IMG/VR virus record: IMGVR_UViG_3300012665_000356
Coordinates: 14,232 to 78,231 of that record
DNA from: a virus
Direction: 5' to 3' (one strand)
Length of the DNA stretch: 64,000 nucleotides
Position numbers and translations under genes: made by a program. Numbering within the stretch: position 1 is the stretch's first letter; each line of letters starts with the position of its first letter. Below the pieces are notes generated by a model. It worked only from the letters and a program-made list of their open reading frames with translations, made no database searches and was not told where the DNA came from. Below are positions 27,526-59,729 of the stretch, one piece after another.

Positions 27526-28906
27526 ACTTGAATACAAGCAAGACCTAGACAAAATAGGACACGGGTTCTGTACGGCTAAATGGTCACAAGTCACTGTTCA
27601 TCTTGGTTCTGGACACAATCATAGCTGTCATCATCCTAGAACGCATTTTATTCCTATACATGAAATAGTAGAAAATCCTAGTGCTCTACATAACACTAAA
27701 TTTAAAAAGAATATTCGAAAACAAATGCTTAATGGCGAACGGCCAATTGAGTGCGATTATTGTTGGAAAGTAGAAGATGCTGGTGAGCCTCTTAGTGATA
27801 GAATATTAAAAAGTTATGAACCATGGAGTCGTGATTATTTTGACCGTTTTATAAAAGCCGGAGCAGACGATAATGTTGACCCTACATATTTAGAAGTTAG
27901 TTTTTCAAATGTTTGTAATTTTAAATGTTCGTACTGTTCGCCCGATGTTAGCAGTCAATGGATGGAAGAAATTAAACAGCACGGCCCGTACCCTACCTCT
28001 ATACGATATAACAACATAGACTGGATTGAGCAACAGGATAAAATGCCTATTCCTGAGCGTGAGTATAATCCTTACGTAGAAGCATTCTGGAAATGGTGGC
28101 CAGATTTATATAAAAATTTACATACATTTCGAATCACCGGCGGAGAACCTTTATTAAGTAAACACACGTTTCGAGTTCTAGATTATATAATTGAAAACCC
28201 TAATAAAAATTTAGAACTTGGAATAAACAGTAACTTCTGTGTGCCCGACGAAGTGTTTGAAAAATTTCTATCTAAATTAGAAATTATTCAAGAAAGGCGA
28301 CTAGTAAAACATTTGGTAATTTATACCAGTTGTGAAGCTGCTGGTACTAAGGCAGAGTATATTCGTCACGGTCTTAGTTATGCTAAATGGTTTTCAAACT
28401 GTAATATGTTTTTAGACAGAGTTCCTAATGCCAAGTTAGGAATTATGAGTACATATAATGCGCTATCAGTAACTAGTTATACTGAGTTCTTAAAAGATAT
28501 GTGGTTATTAAATTATACGCATAAGAAAAAGAAATGGTATCAGTCAGTGGCTAATTTATTTGTGTCTGGAAATTTAGGACAGCATCCTTTAATACTAGAT
28601 ATACCATATCTTAATAACCCCCCGCATCAAACTGTAGGCATTCTTACTGCTGATTATATTCCACAAATTCAATCTTCAATTGATTATATGAATGCTAATA
28701 AAGAGTTTTATAAATCCGAAACTCAAAAATTAGAAAGATTGTTAAAAGTATTTGAACCAAAAATACTTGATACTAACATAGATAAAATTCGACACAGGAA
28801 AGATTTTGCTTTATTTGTCGATGAACACGATAAGAGACGAGGAACGAACTTTTTAAGTACGTTCCCCGAAATGACAGAGTTTTATAATTTATGTAAAAGT
28901 TACTGA
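27503..28906 (+). CDS. Radical SAM protein with N-terminal Cys-rich (twitch/SPASM-like) domain
   Basis: CNFKCSYC (CxxxCxxC), ITGGEPLL; N-terminal FCTAKW..SCHH..ECDYCW. Confidence 0.85.
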   Translation: MNKWYNDRLEYKQDLDKIGHGFCTAKWSQVTVHLGSGHNHSCHHPRTHFIPIHEIVENPSALHNTKFKKNIRKQMLNGERPIECDYCWKVEDAGEPLSDRILKSYEPWSRDYFDRFIKAGADDNVDPTYLEVSFSNVCNFKCSYCSPDVSSQWMEEIKQHGPYPTSIRYNNIDWIEQQDKMPIPEREYNPYVEAFWKWWPDLYKNLHTFRITGGEPLLSKHTFRVLDYIIENPNKNLELGINSNFCVPDEVFEKFLSKLEIIQERRLVKHLVIYTSCEAAGTKAEYIRHGLSYAKWFSNCNMFLDRVPNAKLGIMSTYNALSVTSYTEFLKDMWLLNYTHKKKKWYQSVANLFVSGNLGQHPLILDIPYLNNPPHQTVGILTADYIPQIQSSIDYMNANKEFYKSETQKLERLLKVFEPKILDTNIDKIRHRKDFALFVDEHDKRRGTNFLSTFPEMTEFYNLCKSY

Positions 28907-29568
28907 GTAACGAAATCAGTAGTCATTGGAAATATCTCAGCAATGACTTTAGCACAGGCCTTCGCAACTTCTTGGTGTTCTAATTGTGTGCCATTTGCGC
29001 TACGTAATTCGATAAAGTGTATCCATGAACGTAGTGTGCCATTCATATATAATCGACTTTCTGTAAGACCTTCTGGTAGAACAGCACGAGCTTGTTCTTT
29101 GGCTATGCCCTTAGCGATAGCCCATTGATAGGCACTTCGAGCATAGTCAATGACCTGCTGTTGTTGATGTTGCCAATCTCGCTGTAGGCGTTCATCATCC
29201 GTTTGGATACTATTCTGTCTGTTTTTTGTGTCTTGAAGTCTGGCTTCTCTTGTAACGAACGCCAAATCTTGAGTTGGGTCAGCATAGCGTTGACTGAATT
29301 CTTGGAAACTAAAACTTCTGTGTCGCAAGATTTGTCTAGCAATGTCTCTGGTTGTAGTGATTTCGATACAGGCGGAGACCATTTCGAGTGGGCTCCAGTG
29401 TTGGTGTTTGACCAAGTATCTGATGAGTTTTTCTGATGTCTCGGTGTTAAGTTGGTTTGCGGGATTGGAGACACGGGCGCAATACGCAATGAGTTCCTGC
29501 GCATCTGCGATACCCATGTCTCTAAATTCGCCTGTTGGTTGAGAATATGATAAAAGTTTAACATTCAT
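28900..29568 (-). CDS. thyX: Flavin-dependent thymidylate synthase
   Basis: RHRSFSFQEFSQRY ThyX signature; HWSPLE; EQARAVLP. Confidence 0.95.
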   Translation of the reverse strand: MNVKLLSYSQPTGEFRDMGIADAQELIAYCARVSNPANQLNTETSEKLIRYLVKHQHWSPLEMVSACIEITTTRDIARQILRHRSFSFQEFSQRYADPTQDLAFVTREARLQDTKNRQNSIQTDDERLQRDWQHQQQQVIDYARSAYQWAIAKGIAKEQARAVLPEGLTESRLYMNGTLRSWIHFIELRSANGTQLEHQEVAKACAKVIAEIFPMTTDFVTQ

Positions 29569-33432: not shown

Positions 33433-33863
33433 GAAACTTCGCTCTTTCCTTTAGCTAGGGGTGTTACATTAATAAAACCTGAGCCAACTCTTTCTGGCTC
33501 GGCTATGCCTTCTTCTGTTAGCATATTTCTAACAATATCTCGGAACCAGCGATCTACAATTTCTTCTTCTGGATCACCTTCAAAGCCGTATCCTTCTTGT
33601 TTTAATTTTAACACAAAAAGTTCGTTCCAGTCAAGTTCAAAAAACCCGTTGCGAATATTGTCTTTGTTAACATGTGTATCTAACACAGCAATATATGGTT
33701 CGCCTTTTTTAGTAGCACGTTCCTTGGGCGTAAGTTTTGCTAATTCGGCTTCTTCTTGAGCACGAACAGTTTCTGCTACAGCTTTATCTCTCGCTGCTTG
33801 TAGTTCTTCTTTTTCTGCTTCTAACTTGTCAAGTCCTAAAAGTTTTTTAATAACTTTTTTCAT
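33429..33863 (-). CDS. Hypothetical protein
   Basis: Probable start at 33863 (TAATG overlap with queE); GFFELDWN motif. Confidence 0.6.
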   Translation of the reverse strand: MKKVIKKLLGLDKLEAEKEELQAARDKAVAETVRAQEEAELAKLTPKERATKKGEPYIAVLDTHVNKDNIRNGFFELDWNELFVLKLKQEGYGFEGDPEEEIVDRWFRDIVRNMLTEEGIAEPERVGSGFINVTPLAKGKSEVS

Positions 33864-34726
33864 TAAGTTCCCCATTCATTTTTAAATAACGGCACTTGTA
33901 ATCTATCACTGTATCGCAATCCGTTCTTCATTGCTAAATCTGCTACTGTTCGGTTGTTTAGTGTGTATACACTTTCTACACCGCCAACTGGCATCAAATA
34001 GATATGCCCTGTAAAACCTGCCGCACGATATGCGCCAATAGCACACTCTGCGTCTTTAAAATCTTGTTCTGTGGCAATAACAAACTTCAAATATGCTGTA
34101 CCAAAATTTTCGTATTCACAGACCACTTCTGGTAGAATTGCTTCTTCCCACTTCTCGCCACTACATGGAAGTTTAGCACTTACACTGAATGTAACTTCTC
34201 TAGCAAAATCCATATTAGGCATTTGCCATTGTATTAGATATTCTTTAAATTCTTCAGTTAGTTTTTGAGTACCATTTGTTTCAAATGTAATCTCTTTTAG
34301 GCCTGCCATCTTAGGATGATTGAGTAAGTCTGGATAAGCACGTTGCCAACCTAACAATGGCTCACCGCCTGTAATAACAAGATGAGCATCACCCCAATGG
34401 TTACCGGGAAGAATTTCCATTGTACGTTCTACAATAGCATCGCTTGTAAGCATTGGCGATAAGTCTTTAAACGCAGGATGCCAACTAGCATAGCTATCAC
34501 AACCCGTACTAACTAATGGTAAGTCTTCATACTTTTGAAAAGACTCAATCATTGTATGTGTTGCTGCGATGTCAGTAGCTTCGTGACTCATTTCGCCACG
34601 TGGCATACCAAAGCCAGCACACTTGAAGTTACAGCCAAATGTACGTAAGAAAACAGAAGGCACACCCATATAGCGGCCTTCACCTTGTATGCTGTAAAAC
34701 AGCTCTGCTATTTTAATTTTACTCAT
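33863..34726 (-). CDS. queE: 7-carboxy-7-deazaguanine synthase (radical SAM)
   Basis: ELFYSIQGEG..GVPSVFLRTFGCNFKC..GCDS, VITGGEPLL, FETNGT, SVSAKL, YLMP: QueE/NrdG family; context with folE and queD-like genes. Confidence 0.85.
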   Translation of the reverse strand: MSKIKIAELFYSIQGEGRYMGVPSVFLRTFGCNFKCAGFGMPRGEMSHEATDIAATHTMIESFQKYEDLPLVSTGCDSYASWHPAFKDLSPMLTSDAIVERTMEILPGNHWGDAHLVITGGEPLLGWQRAYPDLLNHPKMAGLKEITFETNGTQKLTEEFKEYLIQWQMPNMDFAREVTFSVSAKLPCSGEKWEEAILPEVVCEYENFGTAYLKFVIATEQDFKDAECAIGAYRAAGFTGHIYLMPVGGVESVYTLNNRTVADLAMKNGLRYSDRLQVPLFKNEWGT

Positions 34727-34761: not shown

Positions 34762-34915
34762 CTTTTTTAAGTTGCCAACTGCCATCTTTGCGATCAATCC
34801 ATTCTAGAGTATCGCCTTCCTTCCAACCAGCTTCTTCTAAAAGTTCTGGAGGAAAGGTTAAAATGGCATCTCCGTTTTCAGGATCTTCTTCTACAGTTAA
34901 AGTCCAAGATTTCAT
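34733..34915 (-). CDS. AbrB/MazE-like small DNA-binding protein
   Basis: ILTFPPELLEEAGWKEGDTLEW swapped-hairpin pattern. Confidence 0.65.
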   Translation of the reverse strand: MKSWTLTVEEDPENGDAILTFPPELLEEAGWKEGDTLEWIDRKDGSWQLKKVDKTTKKSV

Positions 34916-35508
34916 TTAATTGCCTTTAATTTTTTAGATACAGTGTTATACACGTATTGATTTCCTCTATCGGAATAGTGATTTACTTTTCCTCGATTCC
35001 TTGGCCAAAATGTTGAAAACTCTAAATGTTCTTTTTCAAATTTAAATGGCAAACTTGATATAGAATGATCTATGGCAAGATAGGGAACAGTAATTAATGA
35101 TTCAATTTGTTTACGCATCAATTTGTAAATATCTTCTTGAAACGTTTCGTCGTAATGATATTTGAACCAATTCAATGCGGTAACTAAACTTTGATTATTG
35201 TCATCTCTGTTATGATCTAGATCATTAAAAATAAGATCGCAATCTTTATGTAGTCCTGTTCTTTCTAACGGATGTAGTGGAGTATGTATTCGAAAAGGAC
35301 TAGTATGACATACAATTACTAAATCATACTCATTAGGATTATTTTTTTCAATTTGTTTTAAAATTTTGTATTCGCTTATGCCTGCTTGCGCAACATTTTT
35401 AACTTCAAATTCTTTAGACAGCATATTTGGCCAGCCAGGAGTATCGCTGTTCCAATCCGCAGCAAAACTATCGCCTGCTAACAGTATTCTTAACTTTGTT
35501 TCAGCCAT
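34912..35508 (-). CDS. SGNH/GDSL-like hydrolase or acyltransferase
   Basis: ILLAGDSF block I; C-terminal NHYSDRGN. Confidence 0.6.
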   Translation of the reverse strand: MAETKLRILLAGDSFAADWNSDTPGWPNMLSKEFEVKNVAQAGISEYKILKQIEKNNPNEYDLVIVCHTSPFRIHTPLHPLERTGLHKDCDLIFNDLDHNRDDNNQSLVTALNWFKYHYDETFQEDIYKLMRKQIESLITVPYLAIDHSISSLPFKFEKEHLEFSTFWPRNRGKVNHYSDRGNQYVYNTVSKKLKAIK

Positions 35509-36308
35509 GGAATAAAATTTGAAGCAATCATTTTGTGATATTCTTCATTATAGTGTTCATTGTCTGGTAAGAAAAATTTACTATGATCTATAAATTTTTT
35601 CTTAAAATACGACTCTACAGTTAACGATGAAATTTTAGTTGATTTTAATTTTGAATAGAAATCTAATTTAGTTGGAAATTTAACACGATCGGTCATATTA
35701 AACAAATATAATTTACACCCGTGTTCTTGACACATTGAGTCCATTACTAAAATATCTTTAAAAAATTCTCTTTGTTCTAAATGTGTGTTTAGTTCAAAAA
35801 ATAATTTTATATCCATGTAACAGTCTTTTCGAAGATCTGGAGTTACAAGACCATTTTGATAGTTAAAATTAATATCGGCTACTTTACCAAAATCTTCAAA
35901 CGTAGGTTTATTTAATAATTGAAATCTATCTTCTTTAAAAATACAATCTTGATATATGTCAACTAACCCGTGTTTATTTTTATGAAATTCGGTAAAGTAA
36001 TCAGCTGGAATAACTTCTGGTGATAAAGTTTCGTTGAATGCTAGTATAAATCTATTCCAGCTAGCTAGTAAAACAAATACTTCGTCGGTGTCTGGATGTT
36101 TATCTAACATGGCTCTAAGCCAATCAGGATAGATTTTATTTGCGGCACCGGGTATTGCGTATACTGAAACGTTCTTATTGTTTTCTTTTGCGTAAAATTC
36201 TGCGTAATTATTGTCATTCCATAAGGAATAACTGCCAGGCCCTAATTTTCCAGGCTCAGTGATATACCCGCAGGTATGACTGTCACCTAAAAATACTGCT
36301 CTACTCAT
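35490..36308 (-). CDS. SGNH/GDSL-like hydrolase or acyltransferase
   Basis: VFLGDSHTCG block I; C-terminal DNEH (DxxH). Confidence 0.65.
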   Translation of the reverse strand: MSRAVFLGDSHTCGYITEPGKLGPGSYSLWNDNNYAEFYAKENNKNVSVYAIPGAANKIYPDWLRAMLDKHPDTDEVFVLLASWNRFILAFNETLSPEVIPADYFTEFHKNKHGLVDIYQDCIFKEDRFQLLNKPTFEDFGKVADINFNYQNGLVTPDLRKDCYMDIKLFFELNTHLEQREFFKDILVMDSMCQEHGCKLYLFNMTDRVKFPTKLDFYSKLKSTKISSLTVESYFKKKFIDHSKFFLPDNEHYNEEYHKMIASNFIPWLKQS

Positions 36309-36686: not shown

Positions 36687-37073
36687 TCAGCCCTTTCTAT
36701 AGTTTCCTTTTCCGGGAATAGTATTCCTTACACCCCCTACAGGATCTTCAACATCGCCCTTGCGTCTTGGAATTAAATGTATATGCGGATACATTACTGT
36801 TTGACCAGCAGCTTCGCCCCAATTAAGACCAATATTAAATCCGTCCCACTCACCTTTTTCCATCATTTCTTTTCCGTGTTTAAAAGCATCAGCAAAACAA
36901 TCTTCAATAACGCCGTCGGCAGCATATTGGGGAACAAACAATAGATGCCCCGGAGTACACGGATATTTGTCTTCAAAAATTACAACATGAAAGTCTTCTT
37001 GTACTTTTTCAGTCCACGGAGCAACTCCAACTTCTGCGGCATCTTGTAAAGTATAATACTGCTTATTGCTCAT
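36687..37073 (-). CDS. HIT-family nucleotide hydrolase
   Basis: DKYPCTPGHLLFVP; GEAAGQTVMYPHIHLIPRRKGD. Confidence 0.9.
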   Translation of the reverse strand: MSNKQYYTLQDAAEVGVAPWTEKVQEDFHVVIFEDKYPCTPGHLLFVPQYAADGVIEDCFADAFKHGKEMMEKGEWDGFNIGLNWGEAAGQTVMYPHIHLIPRRKGDVEDPVGGVRNTIPGKGNYRKG

Positions 37074-37297
37074 CTAGAAAATTCCTTACGTTCTTGCGGT
37101 AGGTCGTCTTCTTTAATAACAAATTCTCGTCCTACCATATTACCAACAAATACTTTGGTATTTTCTTTATATACCATTCTTAGTTTTACAGTCTGAACAG
37201 CAACTTCTAAAAACGCTCTTGGTTTAAATCCAAGAACATGAACTTCTAGATCTTTTCCGTTATCTGTACAACGTATTTTTATTTTTGAGTCAATCAT
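37070..37297 (-). CDS. Hypothetical protein
   Basis: Probable start MIDSK at 37297 (ATGA overlap). Confidence 0.5.
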   Translation of the reverse strand: MIDSKIKIRCTDNGKDLEVHVLGFKPRAFLEVAVQTVKLRMVYKENTKVFVGNMVGREFVIKEDDLPQERKEFSR

Positions 37298-37794
37298 TTT
37301 GCCCACCAGTCTTCATAAGGGAAATCAATCCATATATCTCGTTCTGCTTTGTTAATCTCTTCACCGACAAAATCCATTTTAACATTACATTTGCTAGCCA
37401 TGTTATCAAACAATACCGCAAATTTAACATTGATATTCCAAACATCGTCTTTCCATACTTCATAATGAGGATGACACCCGCTAGGCCAATCTTGCATAAT
37501 CCAATTCAGTGTGGCACCTGTATCGTTGATATCGTCAACTATAAGAATGTTTTTACCTTTAAACGCATCTTCAGCCATCCAGAGATTGCTTTCTTGCTCA
37601 CTGCCATCACGCAACTGAACCTTTAGTGTTTCACAAGGAACTTCGAAATAGTAACTGATCATCTTAGCAGGAAGCAATCCGCCTCTTGTGATTCCTACAA
37701 CGTAATCAGGTCGCCACCCGCTGATAGCTATGTCTCGACACAGTTTACTAATTAAATTTTGATACTGCGGCCAACTTACGCTATGCTTTTCCAC
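37294..37794 (-). CDS. Type I purine phosphoribosyltransferase (Gpt-like)
   Basis: VVGITRGGLLPA; PRPP-binding ILIVDDINDTGAT; WIDFPYE. Confidence 0.9.
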   Translation of the reverse strand: MEKHSVSWPQYQNLISKLCRDIAISGWRPDYVVGITRGGLLPAKMISYYFEVPCETLKVQLRDGSEQESNLWMAEDAFKGKNILIVDDINDTGATLNWIMQDWPSGCHPHYEVWKDDVWNINVKFAVLFDNMASKCNVKMDFVGEEINKAERDIWIDFPYEDWWAK

Positions 37795-38495: not shown

Positions 38496-38699
38496 TTAGT
38501 CTTTAAAATATTTTTCTAATACTTCTACTTTATCCATGTATTCTGCGATCTGAGAAACTTCTTTTTCGATAGCATCCATAATATCCGAATGATCGTGAAT
38601 TGCCATTGGATTATTTAAAATAACTTCAACGTTAATTTTATGTTTTTCAATGTGTGCTAGATAATGTTGTTTACTAGCTTCAATTAGTTTTTTTCTCAT
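38496..38699 (-). CDS. Hypothetical protein
   Basis: 67-aa helical ORF coupled to folE. Confidence 0.55.
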   Translation of the reverse strand: MRKKLIEASKQHYLAHIEKHKINVEVILNNPMAIHDHSDIMDAIEKEVSQIAEYMDKVEVLEKYFKD

Positions 38700-39520
38700 C
38701 TTGGGGCAAACTCCTGTTGTAATTTAATATTATCAAAGAATTCTTTCTTTGTATTTCCGTCTTCTTTAAACGCACCTTTTAACACGGTAGTCTGTGTAAG
38801 ACTAGAGTGTGCCATGATGCCACGATTTTCACAACACCCATGTGTTGCTTGAATATAGACTGCTACATTTTCTGAGTCAGTTGCTTTGCTAATCTCGCGG
38901 GCGATGTCGTTACAAAGTTCCTCCTGGAGAGTACCTCGACGGGCACACCACTGTGCGATACGTGTGTACTTTGAGAGTCCGATGAGCTTCTGTGCGGCAA
39001 TAATGCCAATATAAGCAACGCCAGCAACGGGTTGGTGATGATGACTACACATGCTACGCAACTCACTACGAACAACCAACATGCCTTCATAACGGTCTTC
39101 CGAGTCATTTGGAAATGCTGTTGCGGTTGGTGCTGGGTCATATCTGCCTTCCATTATCTCATTAAAATACATTTTAGCAAGTCTACGTGCTGTACCTTGA
39201 CTGTTGGGATCGTTTTCACGATCAATGAGCAATCGATCAAGCACTGTTTCAAACGCTTCTGTTGCCTCATCGATTAGGCGTTCTTTATCGCCATCGTGTA
39301 AATAGTCACTGATATTATCACCTGCCCAAAAACGTTTCTTATCACGTTTCATTCTAGCACGAATATTAGCACCTAAATACCCTTCTGAATATCCTTTGTC
39401 AGACATCATGTCTGCGGCTTTGACATATACTTCTTTGCCTAATGGTGTATATTTTTCTTCAACAAACTCTTGATCAATAGGAGTGTTCATTAGTGGATCT
39501 GGTTTAAATTCTTTTGTCAA
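38696..39520 (-). CDS. folE: GTP cyclohydrolase I
   Basis: SMCSHHHQP, IGLSKYTR, RRGTLQEEL, ATHGCCENRG; TTG start after GGAG. Confidence 0.95.
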   Translation of the reverse strand: MTKEFKPDPLMNTPIDQEFVEEKYTPLGKEVYVKAADMMSDKGYSEGYLGANIRARMKRDKKRFWAGDNISDYLHDGDKERLIDEATEAFETVLDRLLIDRENDPNSQGTARRLAKMYFNEIMEGRYDPAPTATAFPNDSEDRYEGMLVVRSELRSMCSHHHQPVAGVAYIGIIAAQKLIGLSKYTRIAQWCARRGTLQEELCNDIAREISKATDSENVAVYIQATHGCCENRGIMAHSSLTQTTVLKGAFKEDGNTKKEFFDNIKLQQEFAPR

Positions 39521-39561: not shown

Positions 39562-40623
39562 TTATTTTAACATCTTTAATAGTTGATCGCAACTAAAAAA
39601 GTTTTGAGTTAACAGCTCTACCTGTTTATTTAGGCTTGGTAAGAATTTTTCATAATTCTCCATATATTGGATAATTTTATGGCATACTTCTTTTCTATGA
39701 ACTTCGTATGATTCAAAACTTTCAGTCCATTCTGAAGGATACTTAAATGTATCCAATGCCATTTCTGAATAGCTAAGTCTATCCGGAATCATTGGAATAG
39801 CATCCACTAACGCACCTTCATACCAGCTAATGCCTAATGTTTCTTGTAGATTGGCACTAAACACTAGTTTAGCCTCGCCTAGCATATTATGATATTCGTT
39901 CTTTGTCAACGGATATTCCTGACAAACTTTAAATTCATATTGTGGAAGATGTTTTTTAAGATCTTCAAAAATAGGCAGTTGCTTTTCAGGAGCGATACGA
40001 TGCGGAAACAAGATAAGATCACGCTTAGGCATGTTCTTATACATCATTAGAGTATCGGCCATATATTCCATAGGCCACCCTGTACGTACTACTTTGCCAT
40101 CAAAATCAGCGCCAGCAATTACTTTTGTATCAAACAAGTTCTTAAAGAACATTTCGATATGAAAGTCTGTGGCAAAGTAGTTATGATCAAATGCTTCATA
40201 AAAACTTTTCTCAGCATGTCTAACCCAAGGTTTAGCACCAACAAGACGTCCTAAAAAATCTTGAGGATCATAACTGCCAGCATGCCATAAACCGTGTGTT
40301 GTTACAGGAATCTGTAACAGCTCACTCATATACTTTAAATTTATAATGCCCGGGTGCCAAGCATCAGTAAAAATAAAGTGATCGCCGGGATGAACGGCTC
40401 CGTTACAAAATAGCCTGCCCATCTGCTCAACTTGAGAAGACTTGTATATATTGGTGCCACCAAAATTAAGAAAAGCACCAGGAGTAGTGGCTGAAGGAAT
40501 ATCCTCAGGGCCAGAGATAATTTGAACATCGTGACCTTTCTTTCTTAATAAGGTAGGCAAGTGGGTTTTCCACTGGCCTGTGTACCTTGTTTCAACAGCT
40601 TCTAGATCAACTAGAAATATCAT
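39562..40623 (-). CDS. GT-B (GT4-like, GTDC1/DUF3524-like) glycosyltransferase
   Basis: LILFPHRIAPEK; SANLQETLGISWYEG (E-x7-E); IPMIPDRLSYSE. Confidence 0.8.
   Translation of the reverse strand: MIFLVDLEAVETRYTGQWKTHLPTLLRKKGHDVQIISGPEDIPSATTPGAFLNFGGTNIYKSSQVEQMGRLFCNGAVHPGDHFIFTDAWHPGIINLKYMSELLQIPVTTHGLWHAGSYDPQDFLGRLVGAKPWVRHAEKSFYEAFDHNYFATDFHIEMFFKNLFDTKVIAGADFDGKVVRTGWPMEYMADTLMMYKNMPKRDLILFPHRIAPEKQLPIFEDLKKHLPQYEFKVCQEYPLTKNEYHNMLGEAKLVFSANLQETLGISWYEGALVDAIPMIPDRLSYSEMALDTFKYPSEWTESFESYEVHRKEVCHKIIQYMENYEKFLPSLNKQVELLTQNFFSCDQLLKMLK
39564..39592 (-). promoter_or_regulatory. sigma70-type promoter for folE
   Basis: TTGCGA-N17-TAAAAT with a TGn extended -10, inside the 3' end of the glycosyltransferase gene. 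Confidence 0.5.
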
Positions 40624-40865
40624 TGGTTGCGAGACCGATAATTAGTTTGCCCTCTTGGCCGATTATTTTGCCATTGGCGTTTAGGCCTTTGACTATCTAA
40701 GAAAGCACGATAGTTATCGTTATCTTTCCTGTAGAGGTGCGCCGGATCAAACGGGCGTAATTCAAATCGACAAAAGTCGAGGTATGTGTCAAGGTCGTTC
40801 CAGACCTTAACAACGTCAGGACGGTTTTCAAAGTACCGATAGTCCTTGTAGTTTTTGCTCATCAT
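40620..40865 (-). CDS. Hypothetical protein
   Basis: 81 aa between the queD-like and GT genes; GAGG SD. Confidence 0.55.
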   Translation of the reverse strand: MMSKNYKDYRYFENRPDVVKVWNDLDTYLDFCRFELRPFDPAHLYRKDNDNYRAFLDSQRPKRQWQNNRPRGQTNYRSRNQ

Positions 40866-40871
40866 TTCCTC

Positions 40872-41267
40872 TTAATATTTGATGAATGAACCATTTTCTC
40901 CGTCTTCGGAGACCTCAATCCAAACCTCACGGTCTGGATACTTTAGTGTGATAATGTTATACAAATCGTCTGACATCATCTCACAACTTTTGTAGTCAAG
41001 GCTCAAAACGGAACCTTGACCATTATACAACGACTCGAGCCATCGCTTGAACTGGATGAATTCGATGTCCCTGTCATTATGGAGCACATTGATCCACACC
41101 CTGAAATGAAAGATGTGGCGATGAGGGTTAGACAAAAACGATACATCGTATTCGTCTCCTGTAGCTAGTGTTGGATCTGTTGCGGCTGCTGGATAGCAGT
41201 GAATGCCTTCTTTACGGAAAGTAACCCAGATCATTTTATTAGGTCTGACGTCTTGACGAATAATCAT
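40872..41267 (-). CDS. queD: Divergent 6-carboxy-tetrahydropterin synthase (QueD-like T-fold)
   Basis: His motifs GIHCY and PHRHIFH, SCEMMS, terminal EVSEDGENG; next to folE. Confidence 0.7.
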   Translation of the reverse strand: MIIRQDVRPNKMIWVTFRKEGIHCYPAAATDPTLATGDEYDVSFLSNPHRHIFHFRVWINVLHNDRDIEFIQFKRWLESLYNGQGSVLSLDYKSCEMMSDDLYNIITLKYPDREVWIEVSEDGENGSFIKY

Positions 41268-41491
41268 ACTGACATCAACCCTTCACACAGTGTTTTAATT
41301 TCGTCTCTAGTCATATGAAAGTTATAAGTGCTAGAAGAAGAAACTTCGCCTTTGTCGTCTAGGCTTTCTTGAATAATGTCTATGGCCAATAATTCTTTAG
41401 GTCGAAGACATTGCCAAGATTCTACACGAACTCTGTAGGCTGAGTTTTCTTTAATAGTAATGTTTTTAATATTTAGATCAGGATGTTTCAT
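41264..41491 (-). CDS. Hypothetical protein
   Basis: 75 aa; overlap-coupled. Confidence 0.5.
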   Translation of the reverse strand: MKHPDLNIKNITIKENSAYRVRVESWQCLRPKELLAIDIIQESLDDKGEVSSSSTYNFHMTRDEIKTLCEGLMSV

Positions 41492-41847
41492 CGTAGACTT
41501 TCCATAGTGATAATTTTACCTATTTCGGCTCCAAGTTCTTTATCGTCAGTGATAACATACATATTATTAACACTTTCGTCTTTTCGACGATCGTAACTAC
41601 GTGTTTCGATAACAAAACCGCCAGAAGCACGATATACTTGTAGTCGCATGCCTTCACTGCTTAGTCGATCAGTTTCGATAGTTTGGGGAATGTCTTGTTC
41701 GTAATCGTCGGACATTATCCAATTGCGGATTCGCTGTTTTAATGATATTTTCATTGATACTTTCCTAATTTTGCGAGCAGGTCTAATAGCACCTACACTT
41801 CTGCGTTGTTTAGAACTGACAACGTTAGCATATCCCATTGTACCCAT
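41488..41847 (-). CDS. Hypothetical protein
   Basis: Probable start at 41847 (TAATG overlap). Confidence 0.55.
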   Translation of the reverse strand: MGTMGYANVVSSKQRRSVGAIRPARKIRKVSMKISLKQRIRNWIMSDDYEQDIPQTIETDRLSSEGMRLQVYRASGGFVIETRSYDRRKDESVNNMYVITDDKELGAEIGKIITMESLR

Positions 41848-42380
41848 TATTTTATAATCTCGTCTTTGCCATATTGATCCCAATTGGTAAACTTATCTCT
41901 ACCAAGTAGGTCCTGTAGGTTATGGCACCAAACCCCAGGATTGGTTGCGTTAAAATCTTTGTCGTCGATCTTTAACGTAGCGTTATACCCTAGTTGATTT
42001 AGATAAGGTAATTTTACACTAATCTGCGGAATAAATCTACGTTTTTCGGTAAGACCGCTTTCTAGCAATCCTTCTGTTTCACTGACATCAAAGTCTAGTG
42101 TACACCAAAAACCATCTTCAGCATCTAGACAGACATAGATCATATCTTCCCACGGCCGCCACGTTTCGGAATCATTTATCCCTTTGGTCTTAAAACTTTG
42201 ATTAGCACCAAAATAGATATGTTTACAATGATAATTGCGAGCAAGTTCCATAATTATATACGGATCATGAACTCCAACTACAAACAAAGTTTTCATACCA
42301 TAGGCAGGCGTGTGTTCAATTTCAATACCTGTGAAAAAAGTAATAGCGTCAGTTTCGCCTGATTGATAATTTCGTTTCAT
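41847..42380 (-). CDS. Conserved-looking hypothetical protein in the deazaguanine cluster
   Basis: 177 aa, alpha/beta pattern; EHTPAYG, HIYFGANQSF, KIDDKDF..NPGVWCH. Confidence 0.6.
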   Translation of the reverse strand: MKRNYQSGETDAITFFTGIEIEHTPAYGMKTLFVVGVHDPYIIMELARNYHCKHIYFGANQSFKTKGINDSETWRPWEDMIYVCLDAEDGFWCTLDFDVSETEGLLESGLTEKRRFIPQISVKLPYLNQLGYNATLKIDDKDFNATNPGVWCHNLQDLLGRDKFTNWDQYGKDEIIK

Positions 42381-42544: not shown

Positions 42545-42750
42545 GTGCTTACATCAGTGATATCAACGACGGTGTCGATGTCTTTATCGTTATCGTTGAA
42601 AAGGTTGAACTTGACAGTGACCGAAGGGCCAATGCCGCTTGTGTGAGCTGATTCAAGAGTAAACCATTCTACTTCTTTAAATTGTGTTGCTATCTTAGTA
42701 AGTTTTTCAATCTGAGATCTATTAAGGCAAAAGTGATTTGGGTCATACAT
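42538..42750 (-). CDS. Hypothetical protein
   Basis: Probable start MYDPN at 42750 after AGGAGG; SGIGP...DITDVSTW. Confidence 0.55.
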   Translation of the reverse strand: MYDPNHFCLNRSQIEKLTKIATQFKEVEWFTLESAHTSGIGPSVTVKFNLFNDNDKDIDTVVDITDVSTW

Positions 42751-44266
42751 TTTGAGCCTCCTGCTCGTGATACAATGCTTCAAGTTCAAGGAGTTTTTCA
42801 TCTTCAGGATCCATAAAATCTTCTACGTCACCAGTTTTTTGTTCTTCTTCATACAAGGCATTAAACGTATTTTTAGCAAGACCGCCTTTTAATCGCATAC
42901 CCATCATGTTATTAAGCATTGGGCGAGCTTGTTCAATCATATCCATTGGAGTTTCGCTTTTAAACAATTCTTCAACAAAACGATCAAAGTATAATACGTT
43001 GCGTGGAACCCAATCGCTGTACTCGTCACTCATGTCCGCATCTTTAATCTTTTTCCACTCTCTCCAATCAGGTTGGAATCGAGCAGTTTCGATATCCATT
43101 AAATTGTTAGCACGTTGTACTGCGGTAATATGACAATAGGTATTATGTGCCATCATTAGAGCATAGCCAAAACTATCCCATGATGTCTTGCCTTCTTTAC
43201 CTACTTTATTCAACATTCCAGGTTTGTACCAACAAATATCGCCTTGAGTTAATCTTCGACCAATTTCTGATTCGAACGGGAAGGGGATATTAAAAGCCTG
43301 GCTAAGGGCTTTGTTGTCTGGGGCTTTGTCCATGATGACTGACCAACGTTTGTTAGTGTGTTGGGCGTTGGTGTAGACGAGTCCGTGCGCTGTCGCAATG
43401 AACGGGCTGGCACAATCAAAAGATATGGTAAAGTTTTCATTAATATTTTTCCTTACTTGTCGTTGAATGCTAGTTAGATAACATGACCAGTCTAATTGAG
43501 CAGTACCCAAAAAGTGCATCCAGTTTCTGTTATCTAACAGTTTCTCATCACGGAGTATGATAAGTCTTTTGAGTGCTATTTCCATATCGCACATATTCTT
43601 TCCGCCCATTGCCCACCCTTCAGTAGGCAAATGTTTAACAGCTTCATACCATGCCTGCGCAGTTTCCCAGTCACTGCCTTGTAGCACGTTTAAGAATTTA
43701 GTTTGTCCTAATCGATTACGTATAAAATAGTCATTGTTGTGTAGAGTTTTATCTAAACAATCTTGAAAACTTTTTAAACCAGTCTTCGGACTATGAATAT
43801 GATCACATGCCCATGTTGGCACATCTAATAACATTGACCAGTCTGCGGTAAGTTCTAACCAATTAAGGATGCTATCTCTAGTTTTATTAGCAGCAGCGCC
43901 TTCAAAGTTTTGCCAATCAAATTTTAACACACCTTTACCAATCTGATACCCGCCAGAGTCACCAACAATCACTGTATTAGCACGATCGCGATCTTGAATC
44001 ATGGCATCTTGTGTGATGGTTTTTTCTAAGTCTAGTTGTGCGTGACCTGCTGAATACAGACCGTACTTGTAAGTAAAATAACCTTGTTCGGGATTAAGAA
44101 AGTTCATACCTTCAATGCCTCGATCAAACCCCTGTGGAACTCGATCTTGGGGAACAAAGTCATTAAATCTTTGTTTACTAACATAAGTTGAATAAAAACA
44201 ACTAATCGCAGGCAGATATACTGCGTAGTCTTTTTGTAATGGTGTTAAATTAACTGGTGGTTTCAT
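42743..44266 (-). CDS. Divergent guanine transglycosylase (TGT/DpdA-like)
   Basis: GDSGGYQ, MLLDVP, LNVLQG, GWAMGG, MHFLG, SFDCASP match TGT-barrel catalytic motifs; no canonical CxCxxC zinc motif seen. Confidence 0.8.
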   Translation of the reverse strand: MKPPVNLTPLQKDYAVYLPAISCFYSTYVSKQRFNDFVPQDRVPQGFDRGIEGMNFLNPEQGYFTYKYGLYSAGHAQLDLEKTITQDAMIQDRDRANTVIVGDSGGYQIGKGVLKFDWQNFEGAAANKTRDSILNWLELTADWSMLLDVPTWACDHIHSPKTGLKSFQDCLDKTLHNNDYFIRNRLGQTKFLNVLQGSDWETAQAWYEAVKHLPTEGWAMGGKNMCDMEIALKRLIILRDEKLLDNRNWMHFLGTAQLDWSCYLTSIQRQVRKNINENFTISFDCASPFIATAHGLVYTNAQHTNKRWSVIMDKAPDNKALSQAFNIPFPFESEIGRRLTQGDICWYKPGMLNKVGKEGKTSWDSFGYALMMAHNTYCHITAVQRANNLMDIETARFQPDWREWKKIKDADMSDEYSDWVPRNVLYFDRFVEELFKSETPMDMIEQARPMLNNMMGMRLKGGLAKNTFNALYEEEQKTGDVEDFMDPEDEKLLELEALYHEQEAQNV

Positions 44267-56241: not shown

Positions 56242-56910
56242 TTATTTATCTACTAGTTTGTAATCGTAGACAGGGCCAACTAAATCCCCGCAACGCAGTT
56301 TTAGCATTAACAATGATTGTTCATTTTGAGCCATAATGTATCTACGATCCCAGTTCCAGTTAGTGGTAACAAACCACTGTGCTGTTGAATCAGTGATATG
56401 TAGATAATCTTGACTTTTGATCCATTTAACAATCAGTGCTTTGTTTGTCATATCGCTGCTTTTGTGCGGATGCAGAAATACTTTGTGCTGAAATTTGTTT
56501 TCTGGAAACTTTTTAACTAATATATTTTTTTTGTTAGACAACAAATCGTCAGTACCGGGAGCCGGCGAACATGTGCTGCTTATTTTTTCAGACAACACTG
56601 ATATAGCTTGAGAAAACACTACATCGGTATCTGTATAGATATCTAAGTTATTAGTTTCTATGCGAGTCTGGTATCTTTCTTTTGGTAGAGTTTCTAGAAA
56701 ATTTATCATGGTTGTGATATTTCCTTTGTTGTCCATGATATTGTGTATAAAACTACCTCGCCAACGCAATGCTCTATCGGGCGGATCTTCTAAATACTCC
56801 CGGATCTGCGTGAAATTTCTTTCACGCATCACACTGATTCCGGGAATATTATAACTTACCTTATACGGCCATTTGCCGTAAAACAATTTTTTAGTTTGTT
56901 TGTGTTTCAT
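56242..56910 (-). CDS. Hypothetical protein
   Basis: 222 aa overlapping the clpA 3' end. Confidence 0.55.
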   Translation of the reverse strand: MKHKQTKKLFYGKWPYKVSYNIPGISVMRERNFTQIREYLEDPPDRALRWRGSFIHNIMDNKGNITTMINFLETLPKERYQTRIETNNLDIYTDTDVVFSQAISVLSEKISSTCSPAPGTDDLLSNKKNILVKKFPENKFQHKVFLHPHKSSDMTNKALIVKWIKSQDYLHITDSTAQWFVTTNWNWDRRYIMAQNEQSLLMLKLRCGDLVGPVYDYKLVDK

Positions 56911-59233
56911 CAGTTAATAAAGGAGCGCCATCGTTAATACGTCGTTGTTGTTTTAAAGCTCGTTTTTCAAACTTACTTAATTCGTCACCAAGATTTTTAA
57001 TATCAAACACTAGTTTGTCGTTTTCACAGCCAACAAATACTCGACCACCTTCTTTAAGTTCGCCAAATAAAATTTTGCGACTAAGTGGAGATTTAATTTC
57101 GTTGTCGATTAGTCGAGCTAACGGCCTTGCCCCCATCTTAGAATTGTAGCCATTCTTAGCTAACCAGTCTCTAGAATCTTCGTTAAGGATAATTTCAACG
57201 TACTTGTCTTTGATTTGTACATTAAGTTCTCGAATAAATTTATCAACAATAATTCTTACAGTATCTACTGATAGTTTACCAAACTTAACAACAGCATCTA
57301 AACGATTGCGGAATTCTGGCGGAAAATGTTTTTTAATTGCTTTGTCATCTTCGCCTTCTTTATCTAAATCACCAAAGCCGATGGCATTCTTTTCGTTGTC
57401 AGCAGCACCTAGGTTAGATGTCATAATAAGAATAGTATTACGACCGTCTGCTTGTTTACCATTTGACCCTGTAACAAATCCATTGTCCATAAATTGTAAC
57501 AATATGTTAGAAACGTCTGGATGTGATTTTTCAATCTCGTCAAGTAACAGTATTGCGTTTGGTGTTTCTTGTAGTTTAGTAATCAGTTGGCCAGCATTGT
57601 CCTCAAAACCTACATAGCCTGGAGGAGCGCCAATTAATCGTGCTACGGAGTGTTTTTCTTGATACTCACTCATATCAAATCTTAACAATGGCATTCCCAT
57701 TTTTTCAGACAATGCTTTGGCTGTTTCTGTTTTACCGCAACCTGTTGGGCCAACAAACAAAAAACAACCAATTGGCTTGTTAGGTAATTTCATTCCGGCT
57801 TGCGCTACAAAGATTTTATCTAGCAAGTTTGTAATAGCATTGTCTTGGCCAAACACTGAATTTTTAAGATTGTCTTCTAAGTCCGAAAGATTTTTGCTTT
57901 CTTTTTCGGAAACTGTTTCAAACGGCATCTTGGTCATTTTACTAACTTCGAACATGACTTGTTCAATGTCTACAAAATTAATTCCTTCGCCTTCAGTAAC
58001 ATCGTCTTTAATTTTATATCGAGCACACGCACAGTCAATAATATCAATTGCTTTGTCTGGCAATTTTTTATCTGGCATATATTTGATACTCATCTTAACT
58101 GCGCTATCGATAGCAGCATCAGTAATGCGAACTTTATGATACTGTTCGTAATATCGTTTGATGCCTTTGATAATCTTAACTGACAGTTCTGGAGTAGGCT
58201 CGTCAACAGTAACACGTTGGAATCGACGCATTAGAGCACGATCCTTTTCAAAGTGCTTACGATATTCTTCCCATGTAGTTGACGCAATGACTTTCATTGT
58301 GCCTTTGGTTAACATAGGTTTAAGCATATTAGCTAGATCATTAGCAGATCCGTTAGCAGCACCAGCGCCACTCATCATATGTGCTTCGTCGATGAAAAGC
58401 ACTACCTTGCCTTTTCGTTCTAACGCAGTAATAACTGCCTTAAGGCGTTCTTCAAAATCTCCGCGATATTTACTGCCCGCAAGTAACGCACTAATGTCTA
58501 AAGTGTATACTTGATGATCGTGTAAAAATTTAGGAACTTTCTTTTCAAATATTTTACGAGCTAGTCCTTCGGCAATAGCAGTTTTACCAACACCGGGTTC
58601 ACCAATGAGCAACACATTAGATTTAGAACGTCTTGCTAAAATTAATTGAATATTTTCTAATTCTTCTTCGCGTCCAATAACAGGGTCAATCTTTTTCTGT
58701 TTGGCCATAAGGCTAAGATTAGTACAGTAAGCATTTAGAATTTTATCTAATTGATTAGAGTTAAGATTTTTAATATTTTGCTCGCCTTCTTCTACGTTAT
58801 CAAATTTTTCTTGATAAAATTCAATAAACTTCTCTTTGTTAATTCCTGCTTTGGTTAGATAATAATAAGAAAAACTTTTCTTTTCAGATAAAATAGAAAT
58901 TAATACATCGTGAACTTCAATTTTTTGTCGTCCGCTGAATAGTACCTGTGTAAAACTGCGATTTAACACACGCTCAACAGATGCTGTTCTTTTTGGTTTC
59001 TGAGTAGGATTTTCAATCTTAATTTCGGAAAGATTGTTTTTTAAAAATTGTTCCAGGTTAACTTTAATAAATTCGCCATTGGCGCCATACTCTGTTAACT
59101 CTTTAAAAATTTCTTCGTCGCACATTATGGCAAACACTAAATGCTCTAGAGTCACATACTCGTGTTCTAGTTTTTGTGCTACGTCAATGGCTCTTTCAAA
59201 AATTGCTTGTAGTTTATCACTGGGTTCTAACAT
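56891..59233 (-). CDS. clpA: ClpA-like Hsp100 AAA+ unfoldase
   Basis: N-domain HEYVTLEHL; Walker A motifs GEPGVGKT and GPTGCGKT; IGF loop (NAIGFG); no ClpB middle domain. Confidence 0.92.
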   Translation of the reverse strand: MLEPSDKLQAIFERAIDVAQKLEHEYVTLEHLVFAIMCDEEIFKELTEYGANGEFIKVNLEQFLKNNLSEIKIENPTQKPKRTASVERVLNRSFTQVLFSGRQKIEVHDVLISILSEKKSFSYYYLTKAGINKEKFIEFYQEKFDNVEEGEQNIKNLNSNQLDKILNAYCTNLSLMAKQKKIDPVIGREEELENIQLILARRSKSNVLLIGEPGVGKTAIAEGLARKIFEKKVPKFLHDHQVYTLDISALLAGSKYRGDFEERLKAVITALERKGKVVLFIDEAHMMSGAGAANGSANDLANMLKPMLTKGTMKVIASTTWEEYRKHFEKDRALMRRFQRVTVDEPTPELSVKIIKGIKRYYEQYHKVRITDAAIDSAVKMSIKYMPDKKLPDKAIDIIDCACARYKIKDDVTEGEGINFVDIEQVMFEVSKMTKMPFETVSEKESKNLSDLEDNLKNSVFGQDNAITNLLDKIFVAQAGMKLPNKPIGCFLFVGPTGCGKTETAKALSEKMGMPLLRFDMSEYQEKHSVARLIGAPPGYVGFEDNAGQLITKLQETPNAILLLDEIEKSHPDVSNILLQFMDNGFVTGSNGKQADGRNTILIMTSNLGAADNEKNAIGFGDLDKEGEDDKAIKKHFPPEFRNRLDAVVKFGKLSVDTVRIIVDKFIRELNVQIKDKYVEIILNEDSRDWLAKNGYNSKMGARPLARLIDNEIKSPLSRKILFGELKEGGRVFVGCENDKLVFDIKNLGDELSKFEKRALKQQRRINDGAPLLTDETQTN

Positions 59234-59234
59234 A

Positions 59235-59729
59235 TCACCTTCTCTTTTTTAGTTTTTTCATTGCTAAGTCTAACTTCATCTTACTTACTCTGTCAACAAA
59301 ACATATACCTTCTAAGTGGTCGTACTCGTGTTGAAAACATTTAGAAAGATATCCGTCAATTTTAATTTCGTGTGTATTGCCTTTACTATCCTGATATTCG
59401 GCAACAATCCATTCGGGACGTTTTACCATCAACCATAGATCTGGAAAACTTAAACAGCCTTCCTTATCTAATTTCATTTCACCGCCTGCTTCTAAAATTA
59501 CAGGATTGAATAACGCAAACGGCGCCGGAAATCCTTTGATATGATTACTGCCCATAACAAATACACGCTTAGTTAGGCCTATTTGATTAGCAGCTAGTCC
59601 AATACCACCGTTTGACAACATAAAGTCTATCATATTTTTTTCTAATTCTTCGGCATTGCCGTCGGTATTGAAATCCCACGGAGTGCTTGGAACAGTTAGA
59701 CTTTCTTGGATACCTAATTTAAATTCCAT
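59235..59729 (-). CDS. def: Peptide deformylase
   Basis: GIGLAANQIG, EGCLS, QHEYDHLEG. Confidence 0.95.
   Translation of the reverse strand: MEFKLGIQESLTVPSTPWDFNTDGNAEELEKNMIDFMLSNGGIGLAANQIGLTKRVFVMGSNHIKGFPAPFALFNPVILEAGGEMKLDKEGCLSFPDLWLMVKRPEWIVAEYQDSKGNTHEIKIDGYLSKCFQHEYDHLEGICFVDRVSKMKLDLAMKKLKKRR

Follow-up and report, generated by a model that had tools for sequence, protein, structure and literature searches.

A DpdA-linked glycosyltransferase with a QTMAN-like donor half, a candidate tailoring enzyme for 7-deazaguanine-modified phage DNA

Within a 64,000-nucleotide stretch of viral DNA (here, the window; positions 14,232 to 78,231 of IMG/VR virus record IMGVR_UViG_3300012665_000356), a minus-strand gene at 39562..40623 encodes a glycosyltransferase (GT) that is a near-obligate neighbor of the DNA guanine transglycosylase DpdA across phages and bacterial genomes. 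The C-terminal half of the GT is specifically similar to that of QTMAN, the queuosine mannosyltransferase, whereas its N-terminal half is not. We propose, at somewhat better than an even chance, that the GT is dedicated to tailoring within a 7-deazaguanine DNA-modification pathway that works without QueC, where it would put a sugar on a deazaguanine-derived base and thereby shield the DNA. Since the kinship with QTMAN leaves out the N-terminal half, the argument that the acceptor is a deazaguanine depends on the linkage of the GT gene to DpdA; that acceptor, the order of the steps, the sugar, and the biological role are what we infer in the sections below.

Linkage of the glycosyltransferase to DpdA

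A tblastn search identified the GT in 22 cultured-phage records, with 52% identity in Sinorhizobium phage Phosso, 43% in the Pseudomonas PA5oct group, 36% in Acidovorax phage ACP17, and approximately 25% in Xanthomonas, Burkholderia, and Erwinia jumbo phages. It lies among deazaguanine genes in all five of the cultured-phage records inspected. In PA5oct, the GT (QCG76198.1) sits between QCG76197.1 and QCG76199.1, which Data S1 of Cui et al. 2023 (PMC10516641) lists as DpdA3 and DpdL, respectively. The same source gives YP_009609723 as the DpdA and YP_009609725 as the DpdL of ACP17, an accession order that places the GT between them. The BUDD GT (USV40851.1) directly precedes DpdA2 (USV40850.1) and DpdL (USV40849.1), and the BCSR5 GT (QRE00063.1) directly precedes DpdA2 (QRE00062.1), with DpdL (QRE00068.1) upstream; these labels are again those of Cui et al. 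2023 (PMC10516641).

A scan of public collections with a 12-row GT alignment found 45 loci in the genome_contigs set and 566 in the viral_contigs set, of which we took the best 80. Hidden Markov models (HMMs) of the partner proteins were built iteratively from those loci, seeded by window and phage proteins. We counted only loci in which the GT had 5 kb or more of flank on each side, thereby leaving out 17 genome loci and 47 viral ones, and scored a partner if it lay within 5 kb. By this measure, DpdA accompanies the GT in 28/28 genome loci, 32/33 viral loci, and 4/5 phage records. DpdL was found in 17/28, 33/33, and 5/5, FolE in 4/28, 31/33, and 4/5, and QueE in 2/28, 27/33, and 5/5, respectively. 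FolE and QueE are thus rare in the genome loci but DpdA is constant, so the constant partner is the transglycosylase and not the precursor pathway. The two open reading frames (ORFs) overlap or lie no more than 100 bp apart in 10 of the 36 genome loci with a DpdA match, and every locus lacking such a match (8 genome, 17 viral) has less than 4.2 kb of upstream flank. Some of the genome loci labeled as metagenome-assembled genomes (MAGs) are probably phage contigs. The linkage between the GT and DpdA is near-obligate.

Compact GT-DpdL-DpdA or GT-DpdA modules, often with overlapping ORFs, are also present in alphaproteobacterial isolates, including Magnetospirillum, Methylobacterium, Pelagibacterium, Devosia, Ochrobactrum, Sulfitobacter, Shimia, and others. 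Pfam annotation of four bacterial GT loci (L032 8321-13079, L036 9351-14306, L018 1367-11047, and L014 5036-11029) returned no phage structural genes. The same loci carry integrases, a resolvase, HEPN_LA2681, a CoiA-like nuclease, AAA_15, nSTAND3, Mrr, and GmrSD. The Sulfitobacter GT has the gene for a Vut_1/YhhQ-like transporter as its immediate upstream neighbor. Judging by this domain content, the bacterial loci look like defense-type genomic islands, where the GT-DpdA pair may serve to mark the bacterium's own DNA as part of an undescribed Dpd-like restriction system.

A QTMAN-like donor half in a GT4-type enzyme

A first-pass annotation of the window, made from the sequence and known family motifs, had likened the GT to GTDC1/QTMAN. 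The ORF and all three of the motifs it quoted are present, on the minus strand, with FPHRIAPEK at residues 206-214 of the translation, SANLQETLGISWYEG at residues 256-270, and IPMIPDRLSYSE at residues 276-287. The motifs it gave for GTDC1/DUF3524 enzymes are accurate for bacterial members, as judged by the consensus of 12 bacterial PF12038 proteins (LILWNHRWEYDKxPE, STAxHEFQGLAVLEA, and PLVPxRLAYPE). Each of these has a counterpart in the GT (FPHRIAPEK, LQETLGISWYEG, and IPMIPDRLSYSE), although the two families differ in detail: NHRWEYDK in the QTMAN-like proteins corresponds to PHRxxPEK in the GT family, HEFQGLAVLE to QETLGIxxxE, and PLVPxRLAYPE to PxVPDRLSYxE. The equation of GTDC1 with QTMAN also holds. 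PF12038 is the Pfam family QTMAN_N, QTMAN is the former GTDC1, and an animal member of the QTMAN family glycosylates the 7-deazaguanine nucleoside queuosine in tRNA (PMC11755703).

The QTMAN comparison set (A3) consisted of those 12 bacterial proteins, human GTDC1 not being among them; PF12038 scored above its cut-off in 16 of the 401 genomes sampled from the class of genome G001, and 12 proteins were aligned. Thirty PF00534 proteins out of five bacterial genomes served as generic GT4 controls. A full-length hhalign comparison of a 97-member GT alignment with the 12 QTMAN-like proteins gave a probability of 99.6 (E 4.6e-24, 278 columns). With the GT-family HMM, all 12 QTMAN-like proteins scored 34.9-86.2 bits and the 30 generic GT4s at most 14.8 bits. 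In the reverse direction, the QTMAN-like HMM gave every one of the 97 GT family members 28.8-71.7 bits (median, 50.8) and no control more than 25.7. The resemblance of the GT to GTDC1/QTMAN is therefore specific and goes beyond generic GT4 similarity.

This resemblance divides sharply between the two halves of the protein. Comparison of the C-terminal halves by hhalign gave a probability of 99.8 and an E value of 1.3e-27, with single QTMAN-like sequences scoring 62-119 against at most 45.7 for controls. Comparison of the N-terminal halves with the 12 QTMAN-like proteins gave a probability of 1.5 (E 0.035) and a score of 18.9, against a generic GT4 control maximum of 30.9. PF12038 had no match at E <= 1 in the window GT, nor any match in the whole contig, and it is absent from the 25 listed of the 32 Pfam families that match the 97 GT members; each of the 7 unlisted families matches at most one member. 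The likeness proposed in the first-pass annotation thus stands for the C-terminal half and fails for the N-terminal half. Since the defining N-domain, QTMAN_N, was not found in it, the GT is not a member of the QTMAN family.

A maximum-likelihood tree separated 20 GT family members and the 12 QTMAN-like proteins from the 30 generic GT4s, with a Shimodaira-Hasegawa-like approximate likelihood ratio test (SH-aLRT) value of 99. It came from a quick search on a full-length alignment that includes neither human GTDC1 nor T4 alpha-glucosyltransferase, and both family stems are long (1.47 and 1.26), such that long-branch attraction is possible. The tree is consistent with a sister position of the GT family and the QTMAN-like family. 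Given this split and the separate HMM scores, the GT does not group with generic lipopolysaccharide/exopolysaccharide GT4s, an outcome that would have spoken against the proposed resemblance.

GT-B enzymes bind the nucleotide sugar chiefly through their C-terminal domain and the acceptor chiefly through their N-terminal one. The GT, with a family-specific N-terminal domain (residues 1-185) and a QTMAN-like C-terminal domain (residues ~186-353), would on these alignments combine a QTMAN-type donor half with an acceptor half of another kind. Such a donor domain is a hint that the type of sugar donor may be shared as well. As the kinship is limited to the donor half, homology to QTMAN is silent on the acceptor, and the step taken in the first-pass annotation from QTMAN resemblance to a shared kind of acceptor does not hold. 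This common donor half and different acceptor half is a new result on how the QTMAN family is built, and warns against inferring an acceptor from a family name.

The bacterial QTMAN-like genes examined have neighbors unrelated to those of the GT family. We found no queuosine gene in the 3.5-kb bacterial QTMAN_N loci. In two of the four such loci scanned, the QTMAN_N glycosyltransferase is preceded by an overlapping alpha/beta-hydrolase gene (L133 2009-2830 and L137 681-1502).

By fold and conserved residues, the window gene is predicted to encode an intact GT4-type enzyme. The ORF begins with ATG and specifies 353 aa with a GT-B/GT4 fold. Its AlphaFold2 model is a two-domain GT-B fold with a predicted local distance difference test (pLDDT) of 96.6 and a predicted template modeling score (pTM) of 0.93, and it aligns over residues 1-353 to GT4 structures. 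The best structural matches include sucrose-phosphate synthase 6kih (Z 25.8; root mean square deviation [rmsd], 3.1; 315 aligned) and BshA (6n1x, Z 25.1; 6d9t, Foldseek E 8.8e-11). Small-molecule GT4s are frequent near the top: BshA, sucrose-phosphate synthase, LmbT (which acts on ergothioneine), and MshA. The glycosyltransferase of phage HY126 (9iqz) also matches, at Z 19.0. No QTMAN chain is in the PDB set, so the absence of QTMAN from the fold matches of the GT means nothing; a profile of the 12 PF12038 proteins likewise matched only generic GT4 chains in the PDB (best, 5i45, E 4.3e-08). When a model of a bacterial QTMAN-like protein (pLDDT 87.5) was compared with BFVD, members of the GT family ranked 3rd (E 4.8e-12) and 12th (E 4.7e-10), amid generic viral GT4s.

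Across 97 full-length GT family representatives, Q64, E138, and E269 are invariant. Residues F206, R209, K214, S256, E261, G264, I265, P280, L283, S284, Y285, and E287 are at least 90% conserved, as are H114 and many aromatic and acidic residues of the N-domain. E261 and E269, eight residues apart, form an EX7E motif. Together with R209/K214, this is what we take to be the usual donor-binding set of retaining GT4 enzymes, the R/K pair presumably binding the donor diphosphate.

All 8000 of the 8000 scored candidate homologues reached E <= 0.001, with a top identity of 90%, and 1093 cluster representatives at the 50% identity level did so. These many homologues and the high-confidence AlphaFold2 model place the ORF beyond chance. 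The family is overwhelmingly viral, as are 95-100% of its ESM Atlas neighbors; its look-alikes there are its own viral clusters and generic GT1 families, in none of which PF12038 occurs. Pfam Glycos_transf_1 (PF00534) matches 77 of the 97 members at E <= 0.1 (best, 4.5e-09). A Pfam scan of the window GT alone found no glycosyltransferase model at E <= 1, PF00534 included; its single match was Rsbr_N (E 0.0012, below its cut-off). With the window GT sequence as the query, PHROG and NCBIfam searches returned no matches and phmmer against the PDB nothing significant. The top PDB match by sequence profile was the Actinobacillus glucosyltransferase 8xsg (E 7.1e-06). The source record comprises 78,231 bases and is estimated to be 22% complete. 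GT relatives occur on contigs of up to 384 kb, from which we conclude that the source is a jumbo phage.

The minus-strand operon in the window

The GT had been placed inside a deazaguanine operon by the first-pass annotation, and the window does hold homologues of FolE, QueE, DpdL, and DpdA3. From 44266 down to 38696 runs a tight minus-strand operon with several 4-base overlaps; all of the genes named here and in the next three paragraphs are on that strand. At its head, the gene at 42743..44266 encodes a 507-aa homologue of DpdA3-type DNA guanine transglycosylases, identified by BLAST to PA5oct (43% identity to QCG76197.1 over 542 columns). The DpdA family alignment (A4) keeps DSGGFQ (D103-Q108) and an invariant D284. 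Searched against the PDB, the profile of this alignment found nothing at E <= 0.01. The weak matches that it did give, the best with an E value of 0.031, consist almost entirely of tRNA-guanine transglycosylases, with the alignment falling at DSGG[FY]Q. The same profile gave no match to the BCSR5 protein named DpdA2 by Cui et al.

Next come three ORFs with no family match. That at 41847..42380 (177 aa) lies no more than 5 kb from the GT in 33/33 close viral relatives, and its ACP17 homologue (32% identity) is located between the FolE and DpdA of that phage. The ORF at 41488..41883 (131 aa) has BLAST homologues in loci L007, L010, L011, and L048, and that at 41264..41491 (75 aa) has 4-base overlaps with its neighbors. 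The gene at 40872..41267 encodes a DpdL homologue, a QueD-like T-fold protein and predicted decarboxylase of 7-carboxy-7-deazaguanine (CDG), found by BLAST and by PHROG 17812. It shares 54.6% identity with PA5oct QCG76199.1 and 53.7% with the ACP17 ORF at the YP_009609725 position, both of which are on the published DpdL list (Cui et al. 2023 Data S1, PMC10516641). The Pfam TGT and PTPS models miss the window DpdA3 and DpdL homologues, respectively, even at E <= 1, so routine annotation will miss the pathway in such phages. Between DpdL and the GT is an 81-aa ORF (40620..40865) without a Pfam or PHROG match that is translationally coupled to the GT, its stop codon overlapping the GT start by 4 bases (ATGA); BLAST homologues of it lie just upstream of the GT in loci L007, L009, L010, L013, and L048.

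Downstream, 41 bases after the GT stop codon, is the gene for FolE, GTP cyclohydrolase I (38696..39520; PF01227, E 3.7e-40, and NCBIfam FolE). An ORF at 37781..38335 matches PHROG 4786, annotated as cysteine dioxygenase (E 2.7e-38), and has no Pfam match. All 33 of 33 close viral relatives have this ORF less than or equal to 5 kb from their GT, and it could be a pathway oxygenase that makes a hydroxyl acceptor for the GT. A purine phosphoribosyltransferase-like (PRTase) gene at 37294..37794 (PF00156, E 1.1e-15; xanthine PRTase model, E 2.6e-14, below cut-off) is kept in 27/33 close relatives and has a homologue in PA5oct, and a gene for a HIT-family nucleotide hydrolase or transferase at 36687..37073 (PF01230, E 6.7e-11) is kept in 21/33. 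The PRTase resembles what we take to be the PRTase step of toyocamycin-type deazapurine nucleotide pathways, and together with the HIT gene it hints at a nucleotide-level branch beside base exchange by DpdA.

A QueE-like radical SAM protein, a putative CDG synthase, is encoded at 33863..34726 (PHROG 2076, E 7e-49; NCBIfam QueE models match, all below their cut-offs). It is 28.5% identical to the PA5oct ORF at the position annotated as 7-carboxy-7-deazaguanine synthase and 28.3% identical to the ACP17 ORF annotated as QueE. No QueC was found above the Pfam cut-off in the 78-kb contig or in four complete GT-bearing phage records, and no QueA in the 78-kb contig. These results agree with the earlier view that the queuosine cyclopentenediol cannot be the acceptor. 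The QueD model PF01242 had no match at E <= 1 in the contig, which is itself approximately 22% complete; the QueD of PA5oct is located far from its cluster (Cui et al. 2023, PMC10516641).

Several other features of the region are recorded here. Two adjacent minus-strand ORFs (198 and 272 aa; 34912-36308) between QueE and the HIT gene have weak similarity to GDSL/SGNH hydrolases (E 0.01-0.056), and homologues of both occupy the same position in locus L012. On the minus strand at 56891-60540, genes for a ClpB-like double-AAA chaperone (780 aa), a peptide deformylase, and DnaJ stand in a row, and ThyX thymidylate synthase is encoded at 28900-29568. An apparent giant plus-strand ORF of approximately 4958 codons extends from position 10110 of the contig (L003) through position 10755 of the window, upstream of structural genes.

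Proposed role and relation to known systems

We propose the following pathway. FolE, QueD (which is not on the contig fragment), and QueE would make CDG. The DpdL-like T-fold protein, perhaps with the PHROG-4786 ORF, would remodel CDG, and the DpdA3-type transglycosylase would swap guanine in phage DNA for the remodeled product. The GT, as a retaining-type, GT4-like GT-B enzyme, would use a nucleotide sugar to glycosylate the deazaguanine-derived base, more probably after that base has entered DNA than on the free base before insertion. The outcome would be a sugar-bearing deazapurine that shields phage DNA from restriction. The sugar might be attached to the 7-carboxyl of CDG, to a nitrogen in the ring or outside it, to C7, or to a hydroxylated intermediate that the PHROG-4786 ORF might supply. 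Because 7-deazaguanine has no hydroxyl, the acceptor chemistry itself would be new.

Independent experimental hints come from PA5oct alone among these phages: five restriction enzymes fail against its DNA, which is also a target of nucleases that recognize modified guanine (PMC12191111). A broader version of the proposal, which we hold tentatively and at slightly under an even chance, is that a widespread family of enzymes from phages and bacterial islands, with a donor domain sister to that of the queuosine mannosyltransferase, makes a glycosylated 7-deazapurine in DNA. The linkage would be a glycosyl ester of the 7-carboxyl, an N-glycoside, a C-glycoside at C7, or a glycoside of a hydroxylated intermediate made by the PHROG-4786 protein, and in alphaproteobacterial islands the DpdA-GT pair would mark the host's own DNA within an undescribed Dpd-like restriction-modification system.

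A number of observations weigh against this proposal. The only product measured for a DpdL-type cluster is 2'-deoxy-7-deazaguanine (dDG), in phiST (Cui et al. 2023, PMC10516641), and dDG offers no evident hydroxyl group as a glycosylation site. Three phages with DpdL, namely phiST, Rhizobium phage RHph_I1_18, and Aeromonas phage Ahp1, gave no GT match (tblastn, E <= 1e-3). The GT is thus present in only four of the seven named DpdL phages, and it is therefore not needed for dDG. The N-terminal halves appear unrelated by sequence, and by that reading the likeness to QTMAN lends no independent support to deazaguanine recognition; in the predicted models, whole-fold similarity does not single out the kinship either. 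The GT is acidic (pI 5.84; median over the 97 members, 5.71), an unexpected property if the protein binds DNA unaided. In Phosso (L001, PV764938.1), the GT is approximately 172 kb from the DpdA3 homologue (150.8 versus 323.2 kb); it has DpdL, FolE, and QueE nearby, and this is the only inspected phage with such a separation. The linkage counts are also non-independent, since the viral loci are 73-90% identical and several genome loci come from one genus, and the partner HMMs were built from the very loci then counted. A predicted complex of the DpdA3 homologue and the GT scored 0.00 in both runs, which, as the runs were without controls, counts neither way.

The same end product could arise by another order of events, in which the GT acts first, on a deazaguanine-derived base that is still free or on a nucleotide from the PRTase, and DpdA or a polymerase then inserts the glycosylated unit. 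We regard this order as unlikely, albeit with some evidence in its favor. It fits the acidity of the GT family, the many small-molecule GT4s (5zer included) among its top structural matches, and the retention of the PRTase gene in 27/33 close relatives and of the HIT gene in 21/33. It also fits the constant company of a DpdA homologue of a single family model, as if the DpdA pocket had adapted to a bulky base. Against it, compact bacterial GT-DpdA(-DpdL) modules occur without a PRTase, and QTMAN reportedly acts on a base that is already in nucleic acid. Queuosine in tRNA is further glycosylated (PMC11755703).

FolE lies directly downstream of the GT, and the T-fold protein DpdL resembles QueD/PTPS (Cui et al. 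2023, PMC10516641), which raises the question as to whether FolE and the T-fold enzyme make a pterin from GTP that the GT then glycosylates, with no relation to DNA. A UDP-glucose:tetrahydrobiopterin glucosyltransferase of the cyanobacterial kind (5zer) does match the GT model (Z 20.2; rmsd, 3.2; 281 aligned). Yet it ranks only 25th, below many unrelated GT4s, and the genome loci keep DpdA in 28/28 cases but FolE in 4/28, which makes the transglycosylase the obligate partner and a pterin role improbable.

We consider it more improbable still that the GT is a functional analogue of QTMAN acting on RNA, with queuosine or another deazaguanine in host or phage tRNA as its substrate. The specifically QTMAN-like C-terminal domain would suit such a role, but the constant partner belongs to DpdA families tied to DNA modification (Cui et al. 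2023, PMC10516641). Moreover, we detected no QTMAN_N domain in the GT, no tRNA genes in the window, no QueA in the contig, and no QueC above the Pfam cut-off in the contig or the four complete phage records. There is equally little to recommend an incidental linkage, with the GT modifying host envelope glycans, a virion protein, or a T4-like hydroxymethyl-pyrimidine in DNA: phage GT4s often decorate envelope or virion components, the Phosso GT is far from DpdA, and T4 alpha-glucosyltransferase 1y6f matches the model (Z 17.9; rmsd, 4.4; 297 residues), but 1y6f ranks 36th of the 50 rows shown, below generic GT4s, the linkage holds across phage lineages that are 25-52% identical and across bacterial islands, and Pfam scans of the 39 window ORFs examined found no hydroxymethylase. 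As for the first-pass annotation as a whole, its observation is confirmed and its interpretation partly supported.

A tailoring role for the GT would matter because 7-deazaguanine DNA modifications are a major phage counterdefense. The tight tie between the GT and DpdA, in jumbo phages as well as bacterial islands, predicts one more deazaguanine derivative, this one with a sugar, and cultured carriers of the GT exist in PA5oct, ACP17, BUDD, BCSR5, and Phosso. Such a base would have consequences for evasion of restriction and CRISPR, for work on these genomes with nanopores and enzymes, and for the specificity of nucleases that depend on modification, e.g., the END nucleases that target PA5oct. 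The GT would also offer an explanation for why the dpdL and dpdA pair of ACP17 yielded no product in E. coli. Our literature search found no paper that ties a glycosyltransferase to DpdA or DpdL or reports glycosylated deazaguanine in DNA; a 2024 deazaguanine review in Microbiology and Molecular Biology Reviews and the original QTMAN paper were outside its reach. Eight deazaguanine derivatives are catalogued by Cui et al. 2023, none of them glycosylated, and the word glycosyltransferase occurs 0 times in the main text of that paper (PMC10516641).

Among the closest known systems is the DpdL/DpdA3 system of phiST (PMC10516641), which likewise combines FolE, QueE, DpdL, and a DpdA3-type transglycosylase and has no QueC. 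The GT carriers PA5oct, ACP17, BUDD, and BCSR5 are all on the DpdL list of Cui et al. 2023 (PMC10516641). phiST has no GT match, however, whereas the clusters described here add the GT, and close relatives of the window phage further add the PHROG-4786 ORF, the PRTase, and the HIT protein. With the QTMAN family, the GT family shares the GT-B fold, the C-terminal half, and a tie to 7-deazaguanine chemistry, which in QTMAN is by substrate and in the GT family by gene neighbors. It differs in that its partners are DNA-modification genes and that no route to the queuosine side chain was found.

Generic GT4s such as BshA, MshA, PimA, and sucrose-phosphate synthase are the best structural matches and have the R/K pair and EX7E in common with the GT, but their sequence similarity is marginal, at no more than 14.8 bits with the GT-family HMM. 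The T4 alpha- and beta-glucosyltransferases (AGT and BGT) are comparable in another respect, since the GT, too, is a phage GT-B enzyme that is proposed to decorate a noncanonical DNA base after replication, although its acceptor would be a purine analogue and not hydroxymethylcytosine (hmC). PDB phmmer and profile searches found no sequence match between the GT and AGT or BGT, and BGT is not among the 50 structural rows shown. Taken together, these comparisons suggest by analogy, and with modest confidence, that the GT works like a tailoring glycosyltransferase of DNA hypermodification, as AGT and BGT do for hmC, within a phiST-type DpdL/DpdA pathway.

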